Assembly (NCBI GenBank): GCA_038319665.1
Contig: JBBQDL010000003.1
Span: 11,129-75,128 of the forward strand
Direction of reading: 5' to 3'
Origin: Candidatus Limnocylindrales bacterium
Lineage (GTDB): Bacteria; Chloroflexota; Limnocylindria; Limnocylindrales; CSP1-4
DNA length: 64,000 nt
In this document: positions 10,520-64,000 of the stretch, one piece after another
Position numbering within the stretch: the first letter of the stretch is position 1
Layout: each line of letters starts with the position of its first letter
The notes under the pieces: model-generated
Told to the model about the DNA's origin: nothing
The model's database searches: none
Seen by the model: only the letters and a program-made list of their open reading frames with translations
Position numbers and translations under genes: made by a program

Positions 10520-11560
10520 GTGGATCTCGCCGACCTGACACGCGACCTCGAATCGCTCCGCTACGACGCGCTTGCCGCGATCGTCGCGACGAGCGACGTG
10601 GCCGCCCTCGAGGCGCTCGAGCTCGACGTCCTGGGCAAGAAGGGTCGCCTGACTACCATCCTGCGCGGCATCGGCGCGCTGCCGCCGGAGGACCGGCCAC
10701 GGGTCGGCTCAGTCGCGAACATTGTCCGTGCGGCCGTCGAAGGCGCGCTCGCGGCGCGGGGCGCGGACCTGCGGGGCGCTGCACAAACGGGGCGCCTCGC
10801 CTCCGAGACGCTCGATGTCACGACGCCCGGCCGGCCGATCCGGCGCGGGACCCTCCATCCCAGCGTCGAGGCGATGGGCCAGATCGTCGAGATCTTCGGC
10901 CAGTTCGGATTCGTCGTATTCGAGAGTCCCGAGATCGAGGACGACCTGACCAACTTCCAGATGCTCAACATCCCGCCCGACCACCCCGCGCGCGACCTGT
11001 GGGACACGCTCTACGTGGATGTCGAGGGCCGGCTCTTGCGGACCCACACGTCGCCGGGCCAGATCCACGCGATGCGCTCGATGCAGCCGCCGATCCGGGC
11101 GCTCCTGCCCGGCCGCTGCTTCCGCTACGAGGCGATCGACGCGTCGCACGGCTCGGAGTTCTTTCAGGTCGAGGGCCTGATGGTCGACGAGGGGACGACC
11201 ATGGGCGACCTCAAAGGCCTCCTCGACCAGTTCGCCAAGGCGATGTACGGGGCGGACAAGAAGACCCGGTTCCGCCCTGGGTACTACCCGTTCACAGAGC
11301 CGTCCGTCGCGTTCGACGTCGAGTGCTTGGTGTGCGGCGGATCGGGCTGTCCGGCGTGCGGTCGGACCGGCTGGATGACGATCCTCGGCGCCGGGATGGT
11401 CCACCCGGTCGTGCTCCAGTACGGCGGGCTGGACCCGGAGCGCTACCAGGGCTTCGCGTTCGGGATGGGCCCGGAGCGGATCAAGATGCTCAAGCACGGC
11501 ATCACGGACCTGCGGCTCTTCCTCGACAACGACCTGCGCTTCCTGGAGCAGTTCCGATGA
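10520..11560 (+). CDS. pheS: Phenylalanine--tRNA ligase alpha subunit
   Basis: HPARDLWDT, LLRTHTSPGQ, FFQVEGL, FRPGYYPFTEPS, GFAFGMGPER; GTG at 10520 follows SD GGAAGGA (alternative ATG at 10502). Confidence 0.96.
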   Translation: MDLADLTRDLESLRYDALAAIVATSDVAALEALELDVLGKKGRLTTILRGIGALPPEDRPRVGSVANIVRAAVEGALAARGADLRGAAQTGRLASETLDVTTPGRPIRRGTLHPSVEAMGQIVEIFGQFGFVVFESPEIEDDLTNFQMLNIPPDHPARDLWDTLYVDVEGRLLRTHTSPGQIHAMRSMQPPIRALLPGRCFRYEAIDASHGSEFFQVEGLMVDEGTTMGDLKGLLDQFAKAMYGADKKTRFRPGYYPFTEPSVAFDVECLVCGGSGCPACGRTGWMTILGAGMVHPVVLQYGGLDPERYQGFAFGMGPERIKMLKHGITDLRLFLDNDLRFLEQFR

Positions 11561-50893: not shown

Positions 50894-51005
50894 ACGATGG
50901 ACTGTTGCGGACCGTTGGAGGCTGCTCCATGACCCGAACGTTCAGCGACCGACCCCGGATGGGCTATCGCGACTCGATGGCAGCGTCAGCGAGCTGTCGA
51001 GCGGC

Positions 51006-51454
51006 TCAGAGGCCCGGGAAGATCGTCTCGTCGCGCATCACGAGGGCGTCGGCCAGACGCGAGGTCGCGCTGTCGGCGCGAAGGGCCTCGCGGATGCGTT
51101 CGTTGACCTCGCCTTCATCGGAGAGCAGGGTGCCGGGGCTGTCCTCGTCGTACGACTCGTCGAGCGCCGAGACCCCGGTCCCGGCGGCTACGACGGGGTC
51201 GCTGTCCCAGGGGTGGCGACGACCGGCGGATCGATCGGCGGCACCCACGGGATGCCTTCCTGCGCGGCGACCTCGGGGTCGTCGGTCTCCTCCTCGCGCA
51301 GTCCTTCCCCGGCGAGGCCGTCCAGGCTCTCGAGCCCGTCGGCCGCCGGGTCGGAGCGGACCTCCGGCTCGAGCTCGTCGAATTCGGTCTTCGTCGGCAC
51401 GCGTCGCCCTTCGATCTCGTCAGGGTTGACGACGGCATCCTGGTCGGCAGCCAT
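51006..51454 (-). pseudogene. Acidic hypothetical protein split by a 1-nt frameshift near 51206-51208
   Basis: SD GGAGGA + ATG 51454; frame A ...EETDDPEVAAQEGIPWVPPIDPPVVATP, frame B DSDPVVAAG...ERIREALRADSATSRL*; one extra G rejoins them. Confidence 0.65.
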
Positions 51455-51492
51455 GCGGGTCCTCCGGGTGTGAACCACTACACTACGCCGAG

Positions 51493-52839
51493 ATGCCAGC
51501 CCGCCACCTGATCGACGTCGCCCCACCGGTCGAGAAGGCCTTCCTCGTTGCCGTCGACACCGGGACCGAGGACGGCTGGACCGCCCAGGACTCGCTCGCC
51601 GAGCTCGCCAGCCTTGCCACGACGGCCGGTGCCGAGGTGGTCGGCGCGGAGTGGCAGAACCGCCGCCACGTCGACCCGAACTGGTACGTCGGCAAGGGCA
51701 AGGCCGAGGATCTCGTCGCGGCGAGGCGCGAGACCGGCTTCGACGTCCTGGTCGCCGACGACGAGCTGTCGCCCGCCCAGCAGCGTGCGCTCGAGGAGCT
51801 CCTCAACGTCAAGGTCATCGACCGCAGCCGGCTCATCCTCGACATCTTCGCGCTCCACGCCCAGACCCACGAGGGCCGGCTCCAGGTCGAGCTCGCCCAG
51901 CTCGAATACCAGCTGCCGCGGCTGACCAGGCTGTGGACCCACCTGTCGAGGACGGGCGGCGGGATCGGGACACGGGGACCCGGCGAGAGCCAGCTCGAGA
52001 CCGACCGGCGGATCATCCGGACCCGCATCTCGAAGATGAAGGAGCGCGTCGAGCAGGTCCGCCAGCAGCGCGAGACGGCGGCCCGTGGCCGCGATCGCCG
52101 GCTGTGGCCGACGGTCGGCATCGTCGGCTACACGAACGCGGGCAAGTCCACGCTGCTCAACGCGCTGGTGGGGTCGGAGGTGGCGCGGGCCGAGGACAAG
52201 CTCTTCGCGACGCTCGACCCGACATCGCGACAGGTCAAGCTCGGTGACGGACAGACCGCCATCGTCACCGACACGGTCGGCTTCATCCACAAGCTCCCAC
52301 ACCAGCTCGTCGATGCCTTCCGGGCGACGCTCGAGGAGGTCAACCGGGCCGACGTCCTGGTCGAGGTGGTCGACGCCTCGGATGTCCATTTCGAGGAGCA
52401 CCGGGCGACCGTGCAGACCGTCCTCGACGAGCTCGGGGCGGGCGACAAGCCGCGTCTGCTGGCATTCAACAAGGCGGATCTCCTCGATGCCGCGGCGCGG
52501 GACGGGACGACCCCGGCCCCGGCCATCGCGGGCGCCGTCTTCGTGTCGGCGCTGACCGGCTACGGCATGGACACGCTCCGGGCCGAGATCGCCGCGCTGC
52601 TCGCGACCCTGTGGGTCGATGTCGACGTGTGCCTGCCGTACACGGCGGGCGAATTGCTCGCGCGCGTGCGCGAGCGCGGCACGATCGAGCTCGACTACGG
52701 CGAACGCGAGGTCCGGGTCAAGGGCCGCGTCGCACCGGCGCTGGCGGGCGAACTCACCGCGGCCGCGGCACGCTGGGCGGCGGCCACGCTCGACGCGGCC
52801 GGTTCGGTCGAGGCCGCGGCCGCCGCCGCTGAACGATGA
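51493..52839 (+). CDS. hflX: GTPase HflX
   Basis: LILDIFA, QVELAQLEYQLPRL, GIGTRGPGESQLETDRR, VGYTNAGKSTL, LFATLD, DTVGF, NKAD. Confidence 0.97.
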   Translation: MPARHLIDVAPPVEKAFLVAVDTGTEDGWTAQDSLAELASLATTAGAEVVGAEWQNRRHVDPNWYVGKGKAEDLVAARRETGFDVLVADDELSPAQQRALEELLNVKVIDRSRLILDIFALHAQTHEGRLQVELAQLEYQLPRLTRLWTHLSRTGGGIGTRGPGESQLETDRRIIRTRISKMKERVEQVRQQRETAARGRDRRLWPTVGIVGYTNAGKSTLLNALVGSEVARAEDKLFATLDPTSRQVKLGDGQTAIVTDTVGFIHKLPHQLVDAFRATLEEVNRADVLVEVVDASDVHFEEHRATVQTVLDELGAGDKPRLLAFNKADLLDAAARDGTTPAPAIAGAVFVSALTGYGMDTLRAEIAALLATLWVDVDVCLPYTAGELLARVRERGTIELDYGEREVRVKGRVAPALAGELTAAAARWAAATLDAAGSVEAAAAAAER

Positions 52840-53408
52840 CCGGACCGACCCGCGTCGCGGGGTGGGGGAGCGGCGCCTTCGGATCGGTCGTGACCTGGAC
52901 GATCGCCGAGGGTCGCAGGGGCCGGCGCTGGCGCGAGGTCGTGCGCCAGGGGGCGACCGTCCTGCACGCGCTCCTGCTCGAGACCGACGCCGATGGCCGG
53001 TTCGCCCACCTGGAGCTGGCGCGCGCGGACGGCCTGTGGACCTTCCATCCCGAACGCGACCGAACCCTCCACGGCAATCACGTGGGTGGCGCGAATCCGG
53101 ATGTCCGGCACGTCGCCGGCTGGGCGTTCGGGCCCGACGACGCGCTGGTGGTGGATGGCTCTCCGCTGGCCCTGGCGGCGATCGCCTGGCGCTGGGCCCG
53201 GACGCTGGCACCCGGCGACGTGGCGCCCGGAGCGGTGGGCGGGGTGCTGCTCCGCTCGAACGGCGAGCTCGTGCAAGTCCCCGAGGTCCGGATCGAACGG
53301 CTCTCGGTGAAACGCTGGCAGGTCGGGGAGGGGAGTGCCTTCGATGTCGACCCGGCTGGCCTGCCGATCCTGGTGGGCGGAACCGTCCGTCCGCTCGAGG
53401 TCGAATGA
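52836..53408 (+). CDS. Hypothetical protein
   Basis: ATGA-coupled to hflX, 190 aa, host-like codon usage; no motif recognised. Confidence 0.65.
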   Translation: MTGPTRVAGWGSGAFGSVVTWTIAEGRRGRRWREVVRQGATVLHALLLETDADGRFAHLELARADGLWTFHPERDRTLHGNHVGGANPDVRHVAGWAFGPDDALVVDGSPLALAAIAWRWARTLAPGDVAPGAVGGVLLRSNGELVQVPEVRIERLSVKRWQVGEGSAFDVDPAGLPILVGGTVRPLEVE

Positions 53409-53418
53409 GGGGCCGGCT

Positions 53419-53479
53419 CGTGGATAGCCTGTGGACAACGGACTTTGGCGCGCGAAGTTCGCGCCAAAGTCGTGGATAA
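53419..53479. promoter_or_regulatory. Three DnaA-box-like 9-mers flanking a perfect 12-bp hairpin
   Basis: CGTGGATAG 53419-27, TGTGGACAA 53430-38, CGTGGATAA 53471-79; stem GACTTTGGCGCG/CGCGCCAAAGTC at 53441-53471. Confidence 0.45.
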
Positions 53480-53659
53480 GTCCGTAGCCAGACCCGAGAT
53501 GCGTCGGCTAAGGTAGGTCTTGCCTGAAGGGGCCTTGGACCGAAAGTGTTGTCGCGGATGCAAATTTGCGGCGGCAACTACGGACCAGCGGTTCCTTCGG
53601 GCGTTTTTGGTGTGCCCGGTACTTGTCATGACCACCGTCGGCAACCTCTGAGGGATCCC

Positions 53660-54592
53660 ATGACCGCCACCGGCTCCGCGACGACCTTGGGCAACGACGT
53701 CACCGATCATCGGATCACCCGGCCTGATGGCCGCGTCGTCGCCTGGAGTGAGTCGGGTTTGCCCAACGGCCGGCCCATCCTTCGCGTCCCGGGCACGCCA
53801 GGTTCGCGCCTCTTCCTGCGCGCCGACCGTACCCCGTGGTTCGAGCGTCGGTTGCGGGTAATCACGACCGAGCGGCCGGGCTACGGAGCGTCCACCCGAT
53901 TCGAGGGTCGAGCGTTCGTCGAACATTCCGACGACACCGCGGCGATCCTCGACGAACTCGGCATCGAGGCGCTCCCGGTGTACGGAACGAGTGGCGCGAG
54001 CCCGCACATCCTGGACTTCGCAGCGCGCCACCCTGGCCGGATGTCGGCCGCGACCATCCTCGTCGGCGCGGCTCCGCTCGATCCGCTCGAAGCAGCCCAG
54101 ATGATCGACCTCAATGCGCTCGAGTACCGGCTCTTCCACGAGGGCCGGCTCGACGAGATCCTGCGGATCGCCGAGGAGATGCGGGGATCGATCCTGGCCG
54201 ACCCGCTCGCCAGCTTTCGGTCGATCATGGCGTCGGCGCCTGCCGCCGACCGCGCGATCCTCGAGGATCCGAACTGGCAGAGCGGCTTCGTCGCCGGGAT
54301 CACGGAGGCATTGCGTCAAGGGGCGGGCGGCTGGTACGACGAGGGTCTCGCGTTCCTGAGGCCGTGGCAGATCGACTTCCAAGCGATCAGGGCCGACCTG
54401 ACCTGGTGGCATAGCGACGGCGACCGGAATGCACCGTTGTCTGCCGCGCGGCGCCTGGTCGATCAGCTACCCATGGCCCGCCTGAACATCTGGCTCGATG
54501 CCGGCCACCTGATGCCATATCGCCAGGAGCCCGAGGTTCTCGACGAGCTGCTCGCCCGCAGCGGACCGTGGCCGTTGGCACCGAGCGCCTAA
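53660..54592 (+). CDS. Alpha/beta fold hydrolase
   Basis: PGTPGSRL, ERPGYGAS, YGTSGASP nucleophile elbow, WHSDGD, DAGH. Confidence 0.85.
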   Translation: MTATGSATTLGNDVTDHRITRPDGRVVAWSESGLPNGRPILRVPGTPGSRLFLRADRTPWFERRLRVITTERPGYGASTRFEGRAFVEHSDDTAAILDELGIEALPVYGTSGASPHILDFAARHPGRMSAATILVGAAPLDPLEAAQMIDLNALEYRLFHEGRLDEILRIAEEMRGSILADPLASFRSIMASAPAADRAILEDPNWQSGFVAGITEALRQGAGGWYDEGLAFLRPWQIDFQAIRADLTWWHSDGDRNAPLSAARRLVDQLPMARLNIWLDAGHLMPYRQEPEVLDELLARSGPWPLAPSA

Positions 54593-54651
54593 GCCTCGAC
54601 ATCCACTACGCCGTCGCCTGCGCGAGCTGAGGCGGGGAGTAGGGTACGACG

Positions 54652-55029
54652 GTGGCGATCATCCGACGCGTCCTTACCGTCCTGGCCGTCGTCGCGGCCC
54701 TCTCCGGGTGCTCAGGCCCGCCTGGATCGAAGACCTCGCCGAGCGCCACGGCGGCGCCGACGGTCGTCATCACGAGCGAGACGGTGCGAACCACCGAGTC
54801 GACCATCCTGCAGGGCCTCGATACCGCCATCGAGGGGGGCTTCCGGATGTGCATGACGAGGACCCAACAGGGCGGCGATGCCTTGGCCTCCGACTGCGAA
54901 TTGACCAAAACGTCCAGCCTGGAAGCCCGCAAGCGGCTGGTCGAATGCTTCATCCGCGCCGATCGGGCGCCGACGCCCGCCCAGTCGATCGCCGCGATCA
55001 TCGTCTGCCAGGAGCAGATGCCGCATTGA
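54652..55029 (+). CDS. Small Cys-rich lipoprotein
   Basis: MAIIRRVLTVLAVVAALSGC lipobox plus four further Cys; TAGGGT 6 nt before GTG. Confidence 0.7.
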   Translation: MAIIRRVLTVLAVVAALSGCSGPPGSKTSPSATAAPTVVITSETVRTTESTILQGLDTAIEGGFRMCMTRTQQGGDALASDCELTKTSSLEARKRLVECFIRADRAPTPAQSIAAIIVCQEQMPH

Positions 55030-55060
55030 GTCGGATCCCCTCGGGTCTTGACGTCCCGAG

Positions 55061-55090
55061 ACGATGTTGTAGTATGCAACAACGATGTTG
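55061..55090 (+). promoter_or_regulatory. Putative -10 box and autoregulatory operator of the HTH-MNT gene
   Basis: TAGTAT at 55070-75 lies inside inverted repeat TGTTG-N7-CAACA; direct repeat ACGATGTTG at 55061 and 55082. Confidence 0.45.
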
Positions 55091-55705
55091 ACCGTTCCCG
55101 AAGCCGCCCGCCGCGCCGGCCGGAACCCCGAAACGATCCGGCGATGGATCCGCGAGGGCAAACTGCCGGCCCGCAAGGTCGGGACGCAGCATGTCCTCGA
55201 GGAGCATGACCTCGAGGCGTATCTCGGTGAGACGTCCGACCGGCTACCGATCCCGGCCGAATGGAAGCGGACGTTTTGGGGCGGACCCATGCCTGATGTC
55301 GTCGGGAGCCAAGATACGGCAGACCGGGCCGCTAGAGCACGCGAGAGCGCGGCGCCATATCTGGCCGGAGGCTCGGTTCCGCCACCGGCGGCGATCGATC
55401 CATGGCTGACGACGATCGTCGGGCGGATCGTGCGCCTGTGTGATCCCGTTCGCATCGCCCTATTCGGTTCACGAGCGCGCGGTGACGCGCGCGAAGACAG
55501 CGACTACGACTTGCTCGTCGTGTTGGACGAGGTGGCCGACCGTCGAGCGATGCGGCTCGAGGTCCGACGCGTCCTGGACGATCTCCCGATCTCCAAGGAT
55601 GTCGTCGTCGCTGCAGTCGCGGAGATCGACGGGCGGGAGGGCCGGCCATGGGGTGCCGTGGCCTGGGCGCTCCGTGAGGGTCGGACGCTGTATGAGCGCC
55701 AGTGA
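55085..55705 (+). CDS. Excisionase-like HTH_17 fused to a minimal nucleotidyltransferase (MNT) antitoxin
   Basis: MLTVPEAARRAGRNPETIRRWIREGKLPARKVG N-terminus; LFGSRARGDAREDSDYDLLVV pol-beta motif. Confidence 0.85.
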   Translation: MLTVPEAARRAGRNPETIRRWIREGKLPARKVGTQHVLEEHDLEAYLGETSDRLPIPAEWKRTFWGGPMPDVVGSQDTADRAARARESAAPYLAGGSVPPPAAIDPWLTTIVGRIVRLCDPVRIALFGSRARGDAREDSDYDLLVVLDEVADRRAMRLEVRRVLDDLPISKDVVVAAVAEIDGREGRPWGAVAWALREGRTLYERQ

Positions 55706-56093
55706 CCCCGATCGTGACGCGTCCCGACACTGGCTGGACCTAGCTGACGGCGACCTTCGTGCCGCGTACGTCCTGATCGCGGATGGCAGCCTTCCACCCC
55801 GAATCGCGGTCGGCTCCGCCCACCAGGCAGCTGAGAAGGCTCTGAAGGCGCTGATCGTGTTCATCGGATCCGACCCGCCTCGAAGCCACGACCTCGTGAT
55901 GCTGGCCCAACGGGTCGCTTCGAGGCTGGTTCTGGTGGTTGATGAAACGGATCTCCGGGCGCTCACCGATGCTTACGCTGAAGCTCGTTATCCGGCCCAT
56001 ATGGGGGTCGAGTACGACGCTGCGGAGTCCGCCGCCTTCGTGGCGGTCGCCGCGCGAATCGTCGGCCAAGTTGCGAGAGAGCTAGGGACGTAA
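55692..56093 (+). CDS. HEPN domain protein (toxin partner of MNT)
   Basis: AHQAAEKALKA, PPRSHDL, EARYP; overlaps the MNT gene by 14 nt. Confidence 0.88.
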   Translation: MSASDPDRDASRHWLDLADGDLRAAYVLIADGSLPPRIAVGSAHQAAEKALKALIVFIGSDPPRSHDLVMLAQRVASRLVLVVDETDLRALTDAYAEARYPAHMGVEYDAAESAAFVAVAARIVGQVARELGT

Positions 56094-56131
56094 CCCCGCC
56101 CACGCTCTGGCACTACTTCCGATAAGGTGAG

Positions 56132-56684
56132 TTATGTCTGTCGGGCTTTGAGCGCGGCTCGCACATATTGGAGGTCCCAACCTGTTTGCCTCTTCACACG
56201 GGCCGCCGTGAGCCGAGGCGTCGATCCAACGAGGACCACAGCGGCCCAGTGTGTCGGCGAACCGCGGACGTCATCTGTATCTTGGGTGAACTTAGCCTCG
56301 CGAAACCGCACGAAGTATTCCTTGGCAGGTTCAGCTAGTGCGAGAAGTCGTTCGTGCAGGCCCTCGATGTTCTGGAGCTTGGCAAGGTTCGCCGCCGCGA
56401 CGAGTTGACTCACACCTCAATCGTTTGCTACACGAAGGAGGACGCGGAATTTGGCCCTCTTGGCGGCTTTCGCGATGGCCGAGATAGCTGCCGGCGCGCC
56501 CTATCTTTTCGGCGAAGCTCTCGAGGGACTTCGCTCGTGCTTCAACTGTCTGGAATTTGAAGTCAGCGGAGGCGAGAAGCTCGACCAACAGACTACGAAA
56601 TCGCTCGCAAAGCCGACTGTACGTCGGTTCCAGCCGGCCACACTCCGCCACAGCCGCCGAGTGGACTGGCGCCGGACCGTTCAC
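56132..56684 (-). pseudogene. RelA/SpoT (small alarmone synthetase-like) gene remnant with internal deletion
   Basis: SD AGGAG + GTG overlapping the HEPN stop; TVEARAKSLESFAEKI matches the synthetase RxKxxxSxxxK motif; later motifs absent; a second frame has an internal TGA. Confidence 0.6.
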
Positions 56685-57175
56685 GTGCTCCTCTTCTTGA
56701 CCGCCTTAATATCGGCTTCACCAAACGGTCGCGTCGGCCGCGCATCTTCGGAATCCTGAGCTAGGAACGTCTTTACGGTCGAACACACCCGTTCGGCGTA
56801 CGTCACCGCGAGTTCAACTTGGTCTCGAGCGGGTTCGTCCGCAGTACCAGCCTGCAACCGCGGATAGCGCTCCAAAACTGCAAAACGGGTCGTTGGAAGG
56901 TGTGCGACCAGCGGAAGCGATGTTAGAAGGGAGCGTAGGCGGCTGATGCTGTGGTCCCGTGGAGGATTTGTGCCTTGCGCCACCAGAACTGCCTTCAGGT
57001 ACTTGAACCGCACTGACTCTGGTGGAGGCTCTTCGATGGCTTGCTGCGCATGGAACCCAATGACGGACGGCGGAATGGCGGAATGGACGGCGAGAAGCGC
57101 TTGCGCAGAGCGCAGATCACAATCTCCCTTGTCAAGCCAGCGTTGGACCTGCTCGTTGACGAGTCGATTGTCCAC
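56681..57175 (-). CDS. HEPN domain protein with an in-frame 9-aa insertion
   Basis: WLDKGDCDLRSA, FHAQQAIE[EPPPESVRF]KYLKA, PPRDH, RYP; starts immediately after the DUF2075 stop. Confidence 0.75.
   Translation of the reverse strand: MDNRLVNEQVQRWLDKGDCDLRSAQALLAVHSAIPPSVIGFHAQQAIEEPPPESVRFKYLKAVLVAQGTNPPRDHSISRLRSLLTSLPLVAHLPTTRFAVLERYPRLQAGTADEPARDQVELAVTYAERVCSTVKTFLAQDSEDARPTRPFGEADIKAVKKRST
57004..57031 (+). mobile_element. Solo IS3-family-like terminal inverted repeat (scar)
   Basis: TGAACCGCACTGACTCTGGTGGAGGCTC resembles the IS6110/IS51-group end TGAACCGCCCCGG...GGAGACTC as recalled, and coincides with the 27-nt HEPN insertion. Confidence 0.55.
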
Positions 57176-59110
57176 TCAATTCTCCGGGCTTGAGTCGTAG
57201 GAGGTTGGCCCCTCGGCCGCCCGTGGCAAGGACTTCACCGAGCGCTCGATCCGACTCAAGACGAAGTCCCGCGTTGGCGCGTCCATGAAGTAGACGTAGC
57301 AGCCGCGGAGGCCGCGGGTCAGGAGGACGCGGTAGGTGCTCTTGACGAAGTCGGTGAATTGCGGCTCGGTGACGCCGCTGCGGACGATGCGATGATCATG
57401 CGATTGGTCGCGTTGGCCGACCCATCCCCCATCGAGCGTCCGGTAGACGAGATCGGGGCCGAAGATGACTCCCACGTAGTCGAACTCGAAGCCCTGCGCG
57501 GTGTAGACGCAGCCGACCTGGTCGATCCCCCGCGGGTCGCTCGCCCAGAAGTCGGACTTCGGGATCCCGGGCGCCAGGCGGCCGGTCTCGGCCTTGGCGT
57601 TCCAAGGCATCGACCAATCCCCTACCCTGACGTCGGGCTCGAGCTCGCCGGCGGTGTCGGGGTCGGACCACGGCCAGCAGAAGCCGGCCACCAAGCGAGC
57701 GGTCGCCCCCTCCCCTGCCCTGCCGCGGATCAGCATGTCGAGCTCCTTGATCGAGCCAGCGACGCGGAAGTCGAACTCGTCGTCGGCCGGCCAGAGGACC
57801 TGCGGCGTCCGGGCCATCTCGAGGGTGTTGTCGACCCACTTGATGAACGAGTCCGAGCCGTTCGAGCGGAACTGCGCCTCGAGCTCGAACTCGCGGACCT
57901 CCAGCCCGCGCTTTGCAGCGCTCTCGCGGATCAGGTCGGTGCTGCCGACCTCGCCTGGGCGAACGACCTGCATGTCGTCGATGAAGAAGACGGTGACGCG
58001 GCTAGAGTCGAGGATGTCGTCGATCTGGGCCTTGCCGGTGCGTGCCTTAGCGGGCGTGAAGCGGCTCGTACTGATCGAGCGGATGCGGTGCGCCTCGTCG
58101 AGGATCACAACGTCGAGCGGCTCGTCGACGTTCGCCGTGTCGCGGAAGTACTTGAACATCGCGCTGGCTCGAGTGCCGACGATCTTGCGGAGGTTCTCGG
58201 TGAAGGCCTTGGAGCCGGTCACGTGGAGGGTCCGGAGGCCCAGGGCGGACAGCTCCGCGACGAGATTGACGGCGATGACCGACTTCCCGGTGCCCGGCCC
58301 GCCTTCGACGATGAACGCGACCTTTTGCTGGTTCTGGCCGGCACCACGTACCGAATCCATGATCGCGTTGTAGGCGACCTGCTGTTCGTCGAGCAGCGTG
58401 AACACGGGCTCGTTGCGGATGACGCGCGCGACGTGATCCAGCAGCCGCTTGTGCGGGCGGAACGCCGTGTTGGCGACCTTGTCGAGGATCGAGCCATCGT
58501 CGGGACCGGCGACTCTGGTGTCGAGGTAGGTGGCGAAGGCGTCGATCTGGTCGCCGGCGAAGGAGGGGTTCGTCGCGAGCAGCGTCGCGAAGTCGGCTTG
58601 GTAGAGCGGCGACTTCGGGTCGAACGTCGCGAAATGCAGGTACGCGCAGGCGTCGAGCGCAACGCCGCCGTCGGTGAACGCCGAGTGCGTGTCGAGCAGG
58701 TAGCGCTGATATTGCGCAGCCTGGCGCGACGGATGGAGGTGGTCTCTGGGACGGCTGACGAAATCGATGACGACGCAATCCGTGATGTTCGAAGGCGCGA
58801 CCTCGGTCCATTGCTTGAGCTCGACGACGACCGCGGCGTCGCCGGTGGCCGGGTTCGAGCCTGTGATCAGCACATCGAGGCGCTTCGACGACAGCGGCAG
58901 CTTGAGCTCGACGAGGACGCCATGATCGCGGAGGTCGGCTAGCTGCAGGACTTGGGCCATAGCAGCGAGGGAGTTCCGCCACGAGTTGACCTCGGACGGC
59001 GCCGGCCGATACCGAAACTCGTCAAAGAACCGATCCGCCAGCAGATTGGCCAGCCGAGCCTGCACCGCATCCGCGATGAACTGCTCGCTGGTTCCCTGGT
59101 AGAGGTGCAT
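57176..59110 (-). CDS. DUF2075 / Schlafen group 3-like nuclease-helicase
   Basis: N-terminal PD-(D/E)xK-like ELKLP..KRLDV..VVELKQW; EGGPGTGKS Walker A, ILDEAHR, QFRSNG, IYTAQG-like VYTAQGFEFDYVGV, YRVLLTRG. Confidence 0.88.
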   Translation of the reverse strand: MHLYQGTSEQFIADAVQARLANLLADRFFDEFRYRPAPSEVNSWRNSLAAMAQVLQLADLRDHGVLVELKLPLSSKRLDVLITGSNPATGDAAVVVELKQWTEVAPSNITDCVVIDFVSRPRDHLHPSRQAAQYQRYLLDTHSAFTDGGVALDACAYLHFATFDPKSPLYQADFATLLATNPSFAGDQIDAFATYLDTRVAGPDDGSILDKVANTAFRPHKRLLDHVARVIRNEPVFTLLDEQQVAYNAIMDSVRGAGQNQQKVAFIVEGGPGTGKSVIAVNLVAELSALGLRTLHVTGSKAFTENLRKIVGTRASAMFKYFRDTANVDEPLDVVILDEAHRIRSISTSRFTPAKARTGKAQIDDILDSSRVTVFFIDDMQVVRPGEVGSTDLIRESAAKRGLEVREFELEAQFRSNGSDSFIKWVDNTLEMARTPQVLWPADDEFDFRVAGSIKELDMLIRGRAGEGATARLVAGFCWPWSDPDTAGELEPDVRVGDWSMPWNAKAETGRLAPGIPKSDFWASDPRGIDQVGCVYTAQGFEFDYVGVIFGPDLVYRTLDGGWVGQRDQSHDHRIVRSGVTEPQFTDFVKSTYRVLLTRGLRGCYVYFMDAPTRDFVLSRIERSVKSLPRAAEGPTSYDSSPEN

Positions 59111-59113
59111 GCC

Positions 59114-59428
59114 TCAGAACCTGCGGCCCGGCACGTCGAGTCCGAGCACGAGGATGACGGTCAACGACAGGATCAATGCCACCAGTGAGACGCCGATCGC
59201 GAAGCCGATGCCGAGCTTGACGCCGGTCCAGAGAGTCAGGTCAACGAGCGTCCGTCTCGACCCGAAGTCATATGAGGCGAGGTCCCGGAGATCATCGACG
59301 GCTGTTGCATCTTGACCGCGGCCGGGATCCCTCGGCGTCCCGCCCTGGAACGGCGAACCGCATTTCGCGCAGAACGACGCATTGGCTGGTCGAAGCGTCG
59401 AACACGTCGGGCATCGGGCGGTGCTCAT
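59114..59428 (-). CDS. Zinc-ribbon domain membrane protein
   Basis: MSTARCPTC...FCAKCG (two CxxC) and C-terminal TM segment GVKLGIGFAIGVSLVALILSLTVILVLG. Confidence 0.7.
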   Translation of the reverse strand: MSTARCPTCSTLRPANASFCAKCGSPFQGGTPRDPGRGQDATAVDDLRDLASYDFGSRRTLVDLTLWTGVKLGIGFAIGVSLVALILSLTVILVLGLDVPGRRF

Positions 59429-59568
59429 GGACGCACAATAGGCCGCGTCGGTTCGCCGAGCATTCGGCACAGGTCGACGAAATGTTCCTTGGAGGCGGCC
59501 TTCTCCTTCGTTGCGTTGTCGCCCCACTTCTGAGCGAACTCGCGCGGCGTCAGGGTCGGCTGGGCCAC
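59425..59568 (-). pseudogene. N-terminal stub of an MmeI-like (Type IIG/IIL) restriction-modification enzyme
   Basis: SD GGGAGGGG + GTG; LTPREFAQKWGDNATKEKAASKEHFVDLCRMLGEPT resembles the family N-terminus (TP.EF..KW...E+...Q.HF.DLC.LLG.P); stops at 47 aa. Confidence 0.7.
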
Positions 59569-59664
59569 GGTCCCCTCCCCTGCTCGTCTGTCTTCACTTC
59601 TTGGGAGTGTACGGGGAGCGTGATCGGCGCCGCGTAGGAGCATGCATGCTCCTAGACTCCCTGA

Positions 59665-60495
59665 GTGGAACACAAGACGACCGAGGAGCAGTGGCGAGCC
59701 CTCCTCACCGGCGAGCATCGAGGCATGCTCGCCCTTCGCCGTCAGTTCGGGCGTCTGCCATCGCCACCGCGCTGCAAGCTCTGCTACGCGCCGTTTCACG
59801 GCATCGGCGGGGCGTTGCTCAAGCCATGGTTCGGGCCGTGGGAGCGCCACCCGCAGCTGTGCAAGAACTGCATGAGGGCCCTCACGAAGCTGGGCGTCGG
59901 CGGCGCCGAGGTCGAGATCTCGATGCTGTTCGTCGACATTCGAGGCTCGACCGGCCTCGGCGAGCGGCTCGGGCCTGCGGCCTTCGCGGCGCCGCTGACC
60001 GCGTTCTACCGGCTCGCGGCAAACGCCATCGTCGAGACGGACGGCGTCGTCGACAAGTTCGTGGGCGACGAGGCCATCGGCCTGTACATCCCGAGCTACG
60101 CGGGTCGGGACCACGCCCGGAAAGCGATCGAAGGCGGTCGTCGGCTCATCGAAGCAGTGGCACGGTCCGATGCGTCCGCAAGCGGGCCGATCCCTGCCGG
60201 CGGGGGCGTGCACACTGGCACGGCGTACGTTGGGACGCTCGGGTCGAGCGAGGAGATCTCGGACTTCACCGCACTCGGCGACTCGGTGAACACCACGGCG
60301 CGACTCGCGTCGCTGGCAGGCCCTGGCGAACTCCTTATCTCGCTCGCGGCTGCAGAGCACGCCTCACTCGACGCGACCGGCCTCGATCGGCGGACGGTCG
60401 AGGTGCGCGGACGCGAGGCGACCCTCGACGTGTATACGCTGCGAACGGTGGCAAGAGACGGAGACGGAGACGGAGACGGCGATACGGGCAGCTGA
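59665..60495 (+). CDS. Soluble class III adenylate cyclase with an N-terminal CxxC...CxxC motif
   Basis: RCKLC...LCKNC; LFVDIRGST, DKFVGDE, DFTALGDSVNTTARL; TAGACT 6 nt before GTG. Confidence 0.85.
   Translation: MEHKTTEEQWRALLTGEHRGMLALRRQFGRLPSPPRCKLCYAPFHGIGGALLKPWFGPWERHPQLCKNCMRALTKLGVGGAEVEISMLFVDIRGSTGLGERLGPAAFAAPLTAFYRLAANAIVETDGVVDKFVGDEAIGLYIPSYAGRDHARKAIEGGRRLIEAVARSDASASGPIPAGGGVHTGTAYVGTLGSSEEISDFTALGDSVNTTARLASLAGPGELLISLAAAEHASLDATGLDRRTVEVRGREATLDVYTLRTVARDGDGDGDGDTGS
60455..60478 (+). repeat. Hexanucleotide microsatellite (GAGACG)4 in the cyclase 3' end
   Basis: Encodes RDGDGDGDGD. Confidence 0.8.
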
Positions 60496-60506
60496 CGGCC
60501 GGGGCG

Positions 60507-61052
60507 TCATGCCCGGGCGGTCAAGTCCGCAGCGGCGGCATCGCGGATGGCCCGCCGGAGGTCCTTGATCAGCAGGATCACGTGGAGCGGATCCGTGGGT
60601 GACGGCTCGAAGCTTGGCTCGATGCCCTGGTAGAAGGCGGCTGCCTCGGGCGTCTCGGCATGGATCAGCAGCGCGCGCACGCCGACGCGTTCGCCGATCG
60701 ACGCTATCTGGAACAGGGCGTCGCGGACGAGGGCCGAGCCAAGGCCTCGTCCCTGCTGAGCCAGGTCAACGCCGAGTCGGGTCAGGATCACGACCGGCAC
60801 GCGATAGCGTCCCACGCCCTTCGTCAGCCTCGGTGGAGCGGCAGCATGCTCGATCGCGCCGGCCGCGAGCGCGTAGTGGCCGACGATCGAGCGCGAACCC
60901 TCGAGACAGATGACGTAGACCTTCGCGGTGTCCGACTGATGGGCCTGGAGCGCGTGCCGGACTAGCCAGCCGGTCTGTTCTTTCGAACCGGAATCGAAGG
61001 ACTGCGTGTCATGGTCGGGTGCGATCGGCTCGATTCGGCCATATCGCGTCAC
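60507..61052 (-). CDS. GNAT acetyltransferase toxin (AtaT/TacT-like)
   Basis: HDTQSFDSG, GHYALAA, LTRLGVD...QGRGLGSALVRDA, LLIHA; GTGA-coupled to the antitoxin. Confidence 0.88.
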   Translation of the reverse strand: MTRYGRIEPIAPDHDTQSFDSGSKEQTGWLVRHALQAHQSDTAKVYVICLEGSRSIVGHYALAAGAIEHAAAPPRLTKGVGRYRVPVVILTRLGVDLAQQGRGLGSALVRDALFQIASIGERVGVRALLIHAETPEAAAFYQGIEPSFEPSPTDPLHVILLIKDLRRAIRDAAAADLTARA

Positions 61053-61339
61053 TCGTCGTGCAGGACGCTCGGTCGGGCCAGGAAGGCCGCGAGGCCAGGC
61101 ATCGGTCGTTCCTCGCGCTCGAGGAGTTGGACGAACGCGTCCCAACGATCGTCGGGGAGGACGAACGTCGTCCGGTCGGCGAGGAGCTCGCGCGCGGCCT
61201 CGGTCGCGTGGCTGAGGACGAAGGCACTCGTGCTCATCGCGGTCGCAGCGGCGGCCTCATCCAGCAGACGTCGATTCGCTGGCTCGAGTCGGAGTTCGAG
61301 TCGGTCTTCCTTGCGTCCTGTCCCGCGTGCGGTCGTCAC
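61049..61339 (-). CDS. DUF1778 ribbon-helix-helix antitoxin
   Basis: KEDRLELRL, LDEAAAA, SAFVL..A..AA..LL, LPDDRWDAFVQLL. Confidence 0.88.
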   Translation of the reverse strand: MTTARGTGRKEDRLELRLEPANRRLLDEAAAATAMSTSAFVLSHATEAARELLADRTTFVLPDDRWDAFVQLLEREERPMPGLAAFLARPSVLHDE

Positions 61340-61346
61340 GATAGGC

Positions 61347-61397
61347 TCCGTGTACGGATAATGTCCGTACCGTACGGAAGACCGCCGCGCATGTCAA
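61347..61397 (-). promoter_or_regulatory. TA operon promoter with two palindromic operators
   Basis: Minus-strand TTGACA (61397-92), 17 nt, TACGGT (61374-69); near-palindromes TCCGT-GT-ACGGA (61347-58) and TCCGTAC-C-GTACGGA (61364-78). Confidence 0.7.
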
Positions 61398-61457
61398 TCC
61401 GATCTGTGGGATGGTTGCTTACGCAACCGAAGCGCGCCGTTGACCCGAGGATCTCCG

Positions 61458-61874
61458 ATGACCGATTACGCCGACTGGACGAAGAACCTGATCGCCGACA
61501 TCCGCGCCAACGGCCGCCCCACGAGTGGTTACTTCGAAGGGCGCCCCGTGATGGTCCTCACGACGACCGGGGCGAAGAGCGGCGAACCGAGATCGGCCGT
61601 CGTGACCTTCTCGCGCGATGGGGACGACTACGTCGTGGTCGGTTCCAAGAGCGGCGAACCCGACGATCCGGCGTGGTTCACGAACCTCGTCGCGAACTCG
61701 GTCGTGACGGTCGAAGCCGACGGCCAGACCTTCCAGGCCAGCGCGACCGTCGCGGAAGGGGCCGACCGCGACACGCTATGGGACCGGCACATCGCGGAAC
61801 ACCAACAGTTCGCCGGATACCCTGCAAAGACCGACCGGATCATCCCGATCGCCCGGCTCAAGCCGCTCGGCTGA
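61458..61874 (+). CDS. Deazaflavin (F420)-dependent nitroreductase family oxidoreductase
   Basis: NLIADIRANG, LTTTGAKSGEPR, VVGSKSG...PAWFTNL, TDRIIP. Confidence 0.88.
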   Translation: MTDYADWTKNLIADIRANGRPTSGYFEGRPVMVLTTTGAKSGEPRSAVVTFSRDGDDYVVVGSKSGEPDDPAWFTNLVANSVVTVEADGQTFQASATVAEGADRDTLWDRHIAEHQQFAGYPAKTDRIIPIARLKPLG

Positions 61875-61884
61875 CAATCGACCT

Positions 61885-62907
61885 GTGAAGAAGATCGGAT
61901 TCCTCTCGTTCGGGCACTGGTCGGCCTCGCCCTACTCGCAGGTCCGGTCGGGGTCGGATGCCCTCATCCAGTCGATCGAGCTCGCCGAGGCGGTCGAGGA
62001 CCTGGGCGCCGACGGCGCGTACTTCCGCGTCCACCACTTCGCCCAGCAGCTCGCGTCGCCGTTCCCGCTCCTGGCGGCGATCGGCGCTCGCACCAAGCGC
62101 GTCGAGATCGGGACGGCCGTCATCGACATGCGCTACGAGAACCCGCTGTACATGGTCGAGGATGCTGGGGCGGCCGACCTCATCGCAGGCGGTCGCCTCC
62201 AGCTGGGGATCAGCCGCGGCTCGCCCGAGCAGGTCATCGATGGCTTCCGCTACTTCGGCTACGCGCCACCGGAGGGCGATAGCGACGCCGACATGGCCCG
62301 CCAGCACGCGGAGGTCTTCCTCCAGGCCCTCTCCGGGGCCGCGTTCGCCGAGCCCAACCCGTCCCCGATGTTCCCGAACCCGCCCGGTTTGCTCCGCCCC
62401 GAGCCGCATTCACCCGGCCTGCGCGACCGGATCTGGTGGGGCGCCGGATCGCGCGCGACCGCCGAATGGACCGGGCAGCAGGGCATGAACCTGATGTCGT
62501 CGACGCTGCTGACCGAGGACGCCGGCATGCCGTTCCACGAGCTCCAGGCGGAGCAGATCCGACTGTTCCGTGAGGCGTGGGCCGCGGCTGGGCACCAGCA
62601 CGAGCCGCGCGTGTCGGTCAGTCGCAGCATCTTCGCGCTGGTCGACGATCGGGACCGCGCCTACTTCGGCCGCGGCAATCAGGAGGCGGATCAGGTCGGC
62701 TACCTCGACGCACAGACGAAGGCGATCTTCGGGCGCTCGTACGCGGCGGAGCCCGACGTCCTCGTCAAGGAGCTCGCCGGGGACACGGCGATCCAGGCCG
62801 CCGACACGCTGCTCCTGACCGTCCCGAACCAGCTCGGTGTCGAGTACAACGCCCACGCCATCGAGAGCATCCTCAGGTTCGTGGCCCCGGAACTGGGCTG
62901 GCGGTAG
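61885..62907 (+). CDS. LLM class flavin-dependent oxidoreductase (luciferase-like)
   Basis: MKKIGFLSFGHW, YFRVHHFA, EIGTAVIDMRYEN, QLGISRGS, IWWGAGS. Confidence 0.92.
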   Translation: MKKIGFLSFGHWSASPYSQVRSGSDALIQSIELAEAVEDLGADGAYFRVHHFAQQLASPFPLLAAIGARTKRVEIGTAVIDMRYENPLYMVEDAGAADLIAGGRLQLGISRGSPEQVIDGFRYFGYAPPEGDSDADMARQHAEVFLQALSGAAFAEPNPSPMFPNPPGLLRPEPHSPGLRDRIWWGAGSRATAEWTGQQGMNLMSSTLLTEDAGMPFHELQAEQIRLFREAWAAAGHQHEPRVSVSRSIFALVDDRDRAYFGRGNQEADQVGYLDAQTKAIFGRSYAAEPDVLVKELAGDTAIQAADTLLLTVPNQLGVEYNAHAIESILRFVAPELGWR

Positions 62908-63508
62908 ACCGACGGACCTGGTAGCGCAGGTGGGTGACGCGAGACCCCTCGACGACCAGGTCCGGCCCATCGAGGAGGATCGTCGCTCCCTTCAGCTCGT
63001 CCAGGAACCGCACCCCGGAGCCGAGCAGCACAGGCACCAGGTCGATCGAGATCTCGTCGAGCAGGCCCAGCTCCAGGCACTGGCTCGCGATCTTGCCCGG
63101 CGTGACGCAGACGTTCTGATCGCCCGCGATCGCCCGCGCCCGTTCGATCGCCGATGGCAGCCCGTCCGTGACGAACGTGAAGGGCGCGTGAGGATGGGCG
63201 GCGACCCAGTCTTGGGGCACCGAGTGCGTGACGACGACGATCGACTTGTCGAACGGGTGCCGGCCACCCCAACCATCTGTGAGGTCGAACATCCGGCGCC
63301 CGACCACGAACACCCCGATACCCTCGACAAAGTCGCGCATATATCGGTAGTCCGGCTCGGACAGGCGGGCGTGGAAGTTCGGGTCCACGCTCGGTAATTC
63401 GTGGTCACCACCGTCGAACCAGGCGAACAAGTGCTCGAAGCCCGACTCGTTCGGCCCGGCGATGTAGCCATCGAGCGAGACCGTCGCCCCGGCCACGACC
63501 TTGCCCAT
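62873..63508 (-). CDS. Dihydrofolate reductase-like / RibD C-terminal domain protein
   Basis: TVSLDGYIAG, VGRRMF, VVVTH, GLLDEISIDLVPVLLGSG.R. Confidence 0.85.
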   Translation of the reverse strand: MGKVVAGATVSLDGYIAGPNESGFEHLFAWFDGGDHELPSVDPNFHARLSEPDYRYMRDFVEGIGVFVVGRRMFDLTDGWGGRHPFDKSIVVVTHSVPQDWVAAHPHAPFTFVTDGLPSAIERARAIAGDQNVCVTPGKIASQCLELGLLDEISIDLVPVLLGSGVRFLDELKGATILLDGPDLVVEGSRVTHLRYQVRRSTASPVPGPRT

Positions 63509-63517
63509 GGGACGGCG

Positions 63518-63768
63518 CTACTCGCCAGCGTCGCCGAACGTCGCGCGGCCGTTCGGTCGATAGGTCTGGATCATCACGCCCCTTGACGTCGAGCGCGACT
63601 CGACCAGCTCCAGGTCGTGTGTCTGGCCGCGCTCCGGGAAGAGCCGCAGCCCGCGGCCGTCCACCCGCCGCGCTCGAACCCGCCGCGCCGGTCCTCGTCG
63701 GGACCCCCGGGACCCTGGTACACGCCGTCCAGGGTCACCATCATCGAAGCGGTCAGCTTCATGGTCAT
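63518..63768 (-). pseudogene. Second DHFR-like/RibD-C gene with a large internal deletion and frameshift
   Basis: N-terminus MKLTASMMVTLDGVYQGPGGPDEDRRGGFERGGW fused out of frame near 63660 to C-terminus GRGLRLFP..LELVESRSTSRGVMIQTYRP. Confidence 0.75.
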
Positions 63769-64000
63769 CGCTCCTTCGCATCGGGGTCGATGAGCCACTC
63801 CACCGCGGCCTCGACGTGCGTCTGGGCAGTATTCAACACCGGTACGCCGGCGCACGTCGGGTCGGTAAGGATCAGGGCAAGCTCGGTGCCGCCGAGGATG
63901 ACGGCGTCGATCCCGTCTCGCTCCCGCATCACACCGACCACCGATGCCAGGGCGGCCCGACTCTCCTCGCGAACGACACCCTGGACCAGCTCACCGAAAT
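63765..64000 (-). CDS. Aspartate/glutamate racemase family protein, C-terminal part (runs off window end)
   Basis: Hand translation FGELVQGVV...DAVILGGTELALIL...NTAQTHVEAAV*; ATGA overlap with the next gene. Confidence 0.8.
   Translation of the reverse strand, partial: FGELVQGVVREESRAALASVVGVMRERDGIDAVILGGTELALILTDPTCAGVPVLNTAQTHVEAAVEWLIDPDAKER

Follow-up and report, generated by a model that had tools for sequence, protein, structure and literature searches.

Xer dif sites follow an 11-6-11 layout with inner ATAA/TTAT, and the integrative mobile elements exploiting Xer (IMEX), among them CTX-phi, TLC-phi and the gonococcal genetic island, are found at such dif/Xer sites. Two described defence proteins, Nhi of S. 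epidermidis (SERP2475; Bari et al., bioRxiv 10.1101/776245) and the 'Nhi-like' protein (Millman et al., bioRxiv 10.1101/2022.05.11.491447), share their domain organisation with a DUF2075 nuclease-helicase encoded close to a dif-like site in the DNA analysed here. This DNA, hereafter the window, is the whole 64,000-nt stretch at positions 11,129 to 75,128 of contig JBBQDL010000003.1, from a Candidatus Limnocylindrales bacterium (assembly GCA_038319665.1). The source is a metagenome-assembled genome (MAG) of a high-GC Chloroflexota, in 77 contigs and 81% complete. The DUF2075 gene lies within a run of five tightly spaced open reading frames (ORFs) on the minus strand. In our judgement, these five ORFs are probably a mosaic of independent, separately acquired units in a decaying defence and toxin-antitoxin (TA) island, roughly 6 kb in size, around the dif-like site.

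The run and the site at its end comprise the following features, in the order in which the minus strand reads them.

59425..59571, minus strand: MmeI-family (type IIG) restriction-modification stub of 48 codons that retains its GTG start and a G-rich ribosome-binding stretch
59114..59428, minus strand: zinc-ribbon and transmembrane protein, 104 aa, ATG start, weak Pfam Zn_Ribbon_1/DZR matches
57176..59110, minus strand: DUF2075 nuclease-helicase, 644 aa, intact, of Nhi-like architecture (Pfam SLFN-g3_helicase, 2e-86)
56681..57175, minus strand: HEPN-domain protein, 164 aa, GTG start (PF05168, 8e-10, 39.3 bits, cut-off 22)
57005..57031, no strand assigned: 27-nt insert in the HEPN gene, GAGCCTCCACCAGAGTCAGTGCGGTTC, a dispersed repeat
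56490..56684, minus strand: N-terminal part, about 65 codons, of a CapRel-like RelA/SpoT gene (phmmer; tblastn E 1e-10 to 1e-14)
56417..56489, minus strand: deletion junction of 73 nt with a frame change, at which ~200 codons, the whole RelA_SpoT catalytic core, are missing
56132..56416, minus strand: C-terminal domain of the same synthetase gene (tblastn P0007, P0010, P0015 and P0016, E 4e-12 to 1e-8)
56113..56140, no strand assigned: dif-like site of 28 bp, CT-ACTTCCGATAA-GGTGAG-TTATGTCTG on the plus strand, bounding the variable slot on its right-hand side

The junctions between the ORFs are tight throughout. The stub and the zinc-ribbon gene overlap in an ATGA at 59428-59425 (TGA of the stub at 59427-59425, ATG of the zinc-ribbon gene at 59428-59426), and the zinc-ribbon stop at 59116-59114 is followed, after a 3-nt gap (GGC), by the DUF2075 ATG at 59110. 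The HEPN GTG at 57175 directly follows the DUF2075 TGA at 57178-57176, leaving a 0-nt gap, and the HEPN stop overlaps the start of a 117-aa ORF (56331-56684) in a GTGA at 56684-56681. The last ORF, of 93 aa (56132-56413), is in a different frame from the 117-aa ORF. All five ORFs and their junctions stand where the initial annotation, made from the letters of the sequence, had placed them, and its domain calls held throughout, including the hardest, that of an alarmone-synthetase remnant. It was also right that every piece comes from a family known in defence or toxin contexts, and that the locus lies within a defence/TA island. Two of its descriptions need amending. The fifth ORF is present but is the C-terminal piece of the synthetase gene and not a gene of its own, and the decay noted at both ends of the run extends to its middle, where the HEPN gene carries an insert.

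What did not hold is the functional interpretation, in which the DUF2075 protein as a sensor and the HEPN protein and the synthetase as effectors formed one module. The combination does not recur, the composition breaks within the run, and the slot downstream of the DUF2075 gene turns over between species. We scanned a genome collection, which gave 240 DUF2075 relatives, and kept the best 80 loci with up to 6 kb of flank each, in which neighbours were checked by tblastn. About 30 of these loci belong to sister species in the Limnocylindrales clade and 50 (L031-L080) to other phyla and archaea; the closest loci among these best 80 of the 240 relatives come exclusively from Limnocylindrales/Chloroflexia MAGs. 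Neighbouring genes were called by unfiltered ORF clustering; calling filtered by GC content at third codon positions (GC3) misses foreign genes. Neither a HEPN gene of this type, nor a RelA_SpoT relative, nor a zinc-ribbon gene stood beside DUF2075 at any of the 80 loci. From the other side, a profile built from the synthetase relatives was run against metagenomes and yielded 80 loci, of which 54 had 600 nt or more of upstream sequence. None of the 80 had a HEPN, DUF2075 or zinc-ribbon gene beside the synthetase-family gene, nor did any conserved neighbour family emerge. The HEPN gene offered three contexts, all on short contigs, and the DUF2075-HEPN-RelA_SpoT combination occurred in none of the three. 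Across these three sets of loci, the recurrence of DUF2075, HEPN and RelA_SpoT together, on which the proposed module depended, was not seen.

Codon composition and synteny point the same way. GC3 shifts abruptly at the DUF2075 stop, from 0.89, which is host-like, to 0.61 in the HEPN gene and 0.56 and 0.63 in the two synthetase pieces; the zinc-ribbon gene upstream has 0.70. The DUF2075 gene itself keeps its chromosomal position across about 30 sister species, and conservation of its C-terminal tail (RAAE..Y) extends right up to the stop. Past that stop, each of the about 30 sister loci has different DNA. The slot holds a reverse transcriptase 0 or 14 nt past the DUF2075 stop in two sisters (L012 and L009), HamA with a large helicase, a Hachiman-like arrangement, in two more (L015, L019), a helicase-family ORF also in L004 and L016, and an HNH nuclease or other genes in the remaining ones. 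Since the absence of co-occurrence, the composition break and the synteny are three independent tests, we conclude that the run is not one system. Because the unrelated genes of sister species abut the DUF2075 gene equally tightly, the close spacing is a property of the slot and not a sign of functional coupling; the zero-gap and overlapping junctions would reflect how cassettes are seated in the slot rather than translational coupling of partners. With the stop codon of the synthetase remnant (TAA, 56134-56132) inside the dif-like site, the lower-GC segment made of the damaged HEPN gene and the core-less synthetase occupies precisely the interval between the DUF2075 stop and dif.

The site that closes this slot is, from its sequence and distribution, a candidate chromosomal dif of an uncultured Chloroflexota family. 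It is single copy in its own genome. Of the 121 genomes of the family, 47 contain it exactly once (46 if the window's own is left aside), spanning 24 genera, and a reversed-pattern control gave 0. The copies differ mainly at the six central bases and at the outermost positions, and the two 11-bp arms are conserved. At 15 related loci, the site (26-28 nt) lies 1.0-5.9 kb downstream of DUF2075 in constant orientation, with unrelated flanks on both sides. In the one relative that carries both on one contig, with a genome of 3.2 Mb, it is 1.63 Mb from dnaA. The window's own genome encodes two full-length Xer-type recombinases (C1:158859-159791 and C1:112361-113278), and the cumulative GC-skew maximum falls 3-5 kb from the site, although the skew is weak and the contig, at only 87 kb, is too short to place the terminus.

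As to how the slot is refilled, because no second dif-like site with at least 14 of 20 arm matches, the signature of an IMEX, was found in 51000-64000, we put forward Xer-mediated integration of cassettes at dif only as a hypothesis. The stronger proposal, that the interval from the DUF2075 stop to dif is a dedicated slot in which Limnocylindrales-type Chloroflexota swap complete defence cassettes by Xer/dif-anchored recombination, strikes us as doubtful. Even so, the dif-anchored site seems to be a hot spot for defence genes in this family, and it is the main interest of an otherwise ordinary decaying island: a candidate dif is flanked on both sides by a hypervariable defence/TA island that tends to break assemblies. 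The dif-like sites of many relatives lie no more than about 300 nt from contig ends (for example G421:C252:94-119, G248:C118:91-116 and G426:C254:227-252), and assemblies breaking beside dif fit a population-level heterogeneity of the neighbouring island. At one locus of a sister genus, about 1.5 kb from its dif (L083, G029:C10), a 5'-truncated DUF2075 fragment has as neighbours genes for a DNA glycosylase of the Mug type and for two proteins that resemble PIN_8 and DUF262, respectively.

Among the five pieces, only the Nhi-like nuclease-helicase looks intact, to judge from its sequence, and it is most likely the sole working defence gene at the locus. Its relatives among the kept loci are 46-85% identical and full length in 70 of the 80, and alignment with 31 homologues (46-85% identity) showed that the window protein keeps all family-invariant residues. 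The helicase part is of the DUF2075/Schlafen-group-3 type of superfamily 1B (SF1B), with invariant Walker A (GGPGTGKS) and DEAH motifs. In the N-terminal domain, the residues E40, E68, D79 and E97-x-K99 are invariant and are set on a core of alpha-beta-beta-beta-alpha-beta order, as in the PD-(D/E)xK pattern. In the AlphaFold model of the protein (predicted local distance difference test, pLDDT, 84.5), the C-terminal two thirds match the SF1B helicases RecD2, Dda, Dna2 and SLFN11 in Foldseek. The N-terminal domain alone gave only weak, non-significant Foldseek matches (E > 0.2), several of them to PD-(D/E)xK enzymes, and has no Pfam match. The PADLOC models for Nhi (1e-13) and AbiO (2e-12) match the helicase core only, and PDC-S41 also matches in part. 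By analogy with Nhi, the SF1B helicase would be loaded onto phage DNA or onto intermediates of replication and deliver them to the N-terminal PD-(D/E)xK nuclease, so that the DUF2075 protein may act alone against phage DNA. In 34 of the 50 loci from other phyla and archaea, the DUF2075 gene is flanked by a gene for a MazG-like pyrophosphatase (PF12643), and about 14 DUF2075 proteins of these loci (L031-L080) bear a C-terminal LexA-type S24 peptidase domain. Neither feature occurs in the Limnocylindrales clade, where a MazG-like partner was found at 0 of 30 loci and nowhere in the window's own genome, and where the S24 tail is absent too. A search of the literature library for MazG together with DUF2075 found no paper. 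The window protein thus represents a solo clade, lacking MazG, of a widespread Nhi-like DUF2075 family, and the gene of this clade has a single fixed place on the chromosome. Several loci (L016:8674-8987, L020:9157-9367, L017, L024, L026 and L083:~100-450) also contain extra pieces of the 3' part of DUF2075, either downstream of the intact gene or away from it, which suggests repeated recombination or partial duplication at the locus.

The HEPN gene belongs to a rare family, with four homologues among 5.8 billion proteins. Aligned with these homologues, the window copy alone has an in-frame insertion of 9 aa (EPPPESVRF) within the invariant QQAxEKYLKA helix. It retains the conserved R73/H75 and RYP motifs despite the nine residues inserted in a core helix, and its activity is uncertain; the helix that takes the insertion is its most conserved one. 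The insertion is encoded by the 27-nt repeat, which has six exact copies in the window's own genome, usually with CCA just before it.

C5:8241-8267, C15:1134-1160, C30:17901-17927, C30:18284-18310 and C38:14883-14909: other exact copies of the 27-nt repeat

Two of these copies, on C30, are inverted and 356 nt apart, an arrangement like that of a miniature inverted-repeat transposable element (MITE), and five further genomes of the family hold variants of the repeat, some of them where a contig ends. Because of the six exact copies, the inverted pair and these variants, the insert resembles a mobile-element terminal repeat. The copy in the HEPN gene is in frame and without target duplication. 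The HEPN homologues stand either behind a gene for a TIR-domain protein or ahead of a DNA methyltransferase gene. The contig of the closest homologue (L084) looks chimeric at 354-2303, where a T2SSE-like ATPase stretch breaks up a TIR-domain ORF; 3' of that homologue lies a gene that ends in an IS30-like transposase fragment.

The two small ORFs at the end of the run matched nothing in Pfam (E up to 10), NCBIfam, PADLOC or the PDB sequences. When the 117-aa ORF was run exhaustively against 1.84 billion representatives with phmmer, 14 proteins matched, with E down to 1.6e-6. Eight are full length (353-399 aa), are 41-48% identical to the remnant over their first ~65 residues, and each of the eight has a RelA_SpoT domain spanning roughly residues 45-180. 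In the reverse tblastn comparison with the window, residues ~4-67 of these relatives map to 56660-56484 and residues ~257-363, in the reading frame of the 93-aa ORF, to 56416-56144; residues ~68-256 have no counterpart in any frame of the window. As the relatives match both ends and not the middle, 56132-56684 is, on this comparison, one gene of a ~360-aa RelA/SpoT (CapRel-like) family that has lost its core and changed frame. Since the catalytic domain is absent and the frame is shifted, the remnant should be inactive and make no nucleotide product. In a class-wide six-frame search with the N-terminal fragment, two weak matches, to an ABC permease and a PIN_8-like protein, were dismissed as false or unrelated. 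The catalytic part of the intact relatives matches RelQ/RelP (1e-13), with a weak match to the CapRel structure PDB 7ZTB (7e-4), and in PADLOC they match, partially, only the candidate model PDC-S33.

The alternative that survives best concerns these two downstream genes. The HEPN gene and the CapRel-like synthetase gene may have arrived jointly as a two-gene cassette, independent of DUF2075 and in working order until the damage occurred; it could, for instance, have combined a toxin with its modulator, or stacked two effectors. Their similarly low GC3 (0.61 against 0.56-0.63), their GTGA overlap and their exact joint fit between the DUF2075 stop and dif all agree with a pair. The neighbourhoods of both families speak against it: a HEPN gene lies neither upstream nor downstream of the synthetase in any of the 80 loci, where no neighbour family is conserved, and downstream of the HEPN homologues lies a transposase fragment or a DNA methyltransferase gene and no synthetase. 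The intact synthetase relatives are, moreover, mostly stand-alone genes, two closer ones being preceded by gaps of 386 nt and 620 nt, and their CapRel-like architecture suggests a self-contained fused toxin-antitoxin. We regard such a cassette as possible, if rather unlikely.

At the other end of the run, the enzyme encoded by the MmeI stub has been lost beyond about residue 40. The stub alone gives a weak match to the PADLOC model REase_MTase_IIG (1e-4), and longer stubs occur in the relatives L026, L009, L015 and L014, each truncated and at differing points; that of L026 matches Pfam MmeI_N (9e-9). An ancestral MmeI-type restriction gene would thus have been whittled to 48 codons, and the small zinc-ribbon membrane gene would have replaced the rest of it. 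The zinc-ribbon ORF is, by the conservation of its sequence, a real gene: it has four homologues of 72-104 aa in other samples (three of them 98-104 aa), at 50-73% identity. The promoter and ribosome-binding stretch of the stub may still drive the zinc-ribbon and DUF2075 genes; a promoter and terminator scan of the minus strand of the locus found none. On one metagenome contig (L091:92-731), an MmeI stub and a zinc-ribbon gene are followed, after 153 nt, by dif, and the block of DUF2075 plus cassette is wholly absent; the ATGCAC after the zinc-ribbon stop equals the first two codons of the DUF2075 gene and may be a deletion scar.

This arrangement bears on a further proposal, in which the zinc-ribbon protein is a membrane anchor or effector partner of the DUF2075 protein and the two genes form a true operon that uses the stub's promoter. 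The shared strand, the 3-nt gap, the retained start codon and ribosome-binding stretch of the stub, and the conservation of the zinc-ribbon gene within the clade would all suit such an operon. The zinc-ribbon gene is nevertheless missing upstream of DUF2075 at all 80 loci, its three other contexts have no DUF2075 downstream (in L091 dif comes next), and its GC3 of 0.70 differs from the 0.89 of the DUF2075 gene, which makes the partnership improbable.

We find it highly improbable that the mosaic, including the synthetase deletion and the 27-nt insert, is an artefact of assembly or binning. The assembly is a MAG in 77 contigs, the contigs of relatives often end beside dif, and a multi-copy 27-nt repeat can confuse assemblers. 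Against this, about 30 independent assemblies share the synteny of the flanks, the junction of the stub and the zinc-ribbon gene recurs in the independent contig L091, the insert is exactly in frame with the HEPN sequence resuming on both sides, and the window lies well inside its 87-kb contig.

Least credible of all, and close to negligible in our estimation, is the reading of the initial annotation, an unnamed three-component abortive-infection system of DUF2075 sensor, HEPN RNase and synthetase effectors that is decaying here: it draws on the single strand, the zero-gap or overlapping junctions and the defence contexts known for all three families, and is contradicted by the lack of the combination in all DUF2075, synthetase and HEPN contexts (0/80, 0/80 and 0/3), by the composition break at the DUF2075 stop, by the unrelated defence genes in the same slot of sister species and by the MazG-like pyrophosphatase as the usual partner of the DUF2075 family elsewhere.

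Several points weigh against our own interpretation of the run as a mosaic with one working gene. The HEPN and synthetase pieces, both low in GC3 and overlapping by 4 nt, may have come as a pair, and the HEPN contexts are three short contigs. The stub, zinc-ribbon and DUF2075 genes could be co-transcribed from the old MmeI promoter. The origin of the sequence from a MAG at 81% completeness also counts here. The nuclease fold proposed for the N-terminal domain of the DUF2075 protein is predicted from motif and topology, with no significant Foldseek match on the domain, and the anti-phage role suggested for this DUF2075 clade draws on the analogy with Nhi.

The mosaic reading, which we favour, is in keeping with the rest of the island, whose further genes are as follows.

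55085-55705, plus strand: antitoxin with helix-turn-helix (HTH) and minimal nucleotidyltransferase (MNT) domains (HTH_17 and NTP_transf_2; MntA model 2e-8)
55692-56093, plus strand: HEPN toxin paired with the HTH-MNT antitoxin (HEPN 5e-17)
59665-60495, plus strand: class III adenylate/guanylate cyclase-domain protein, 276 aa (Pfam Guanylate_cyc, 9e-9)
60507-61145, minus strand: GNAT TacT-like toxin (Pfam GNAT matches)
61049-61339, minus strand: TacA antitoxin, DUF1778 (TacA1, 2e-17)

The HTH-MNT/HEPN pair (55085..56093) is convergent to the five-ORF run, on the other side of dif. In relatives, a conserved HTH gene across dif is paired with PIN, ParE or HEPN toxins. The HEPN of this pair, 600 nt away from the HEPN gene of the run, is 39% identical to it over 70 residues. 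Beyond the other end, the cyclase gene sits between the MmeI stub and the TacA/TacT-like (DUF1778 and GNAT) pair, and a long minus-strand ORF at 59425-60360 is mostly an antisense shadow of the cyclase gene.

Our analyses indicate that defence-type genes joined without a gap or with an overlap do not constitute a system on that account, and the proposed system of a sensor and two effectors should be neither cloned nor named. The locus offers instead a natural example of the death of defence genes, with the deletion of a synthetase core, an in-frame scar in a HEPN gene and restriction-modification stubs of differing lengths among sister species.

Measured against described systems, the DUF2075, HEPN, synthetase and MmeI pieces show both likenesses and departures. 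For Nhi, Nhi-like and AbiO proteins, sequence similarity to the window DUF2075 protein is restricted to the helicase core. Members of the DUF2075 family outside the Limnocylindrales clade are usually accompanied by a MazG-like partner and sometimes end in an S24 peptidase tail, and the window protein is a full-length homologue, at 46-58% identity, of the helicase in these cassettes of MazG-like and DUF2075 genes, with or without S24. With the HEPN-MNT (type VII) TA systems the HEPN protein has the PF05168 domain in common, and it differs from them in having no adjacent MNT, in belonging to a very rare subfamily and in its 9-aa insertion. The relatives of the synthetase remnant resemble the fused synthetases of the CapRel(SJ46) type (PDB 7ZTB/9ERV) and toxSAS in being ~360 aa long, with an N-terminal RelA_SpoT domain and a C-terminal domain of ~150 aa; the family kinship to CapRel is distant, and the window copy is frameshifted and without the catalytic core. 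The N-terminal 40 residues of the MmeI stub are homologous to the MmeI_N-containing stubs of relatives and so point to the type IIG/IIL enzymes of the MmeI family, from which the stub differs by the loss of the nuclease core and of the helicase-like, methyltransferase and target-recognition domains.

The comparison with dif/IMEX regions concerns the locus as a whole. The window has no second degenerate dif-like flank, so that classical integration is not demonstrated, and its cargo consists of defence/TA genes rather than of a phage. It is like these regions in its single-copy 28-bp site of 11-6-11 layout far from dnaA, in the variable spacer of that site, in its sharp borders and in the variable genes on both sides. 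Should complete cassettes indeed be swapped there by dif-anchored recombination, the locus would amount to a defence hot spot tied to dif, comparable in some measure to an integron platform, with the housekeeping Xer machinery doing the work.

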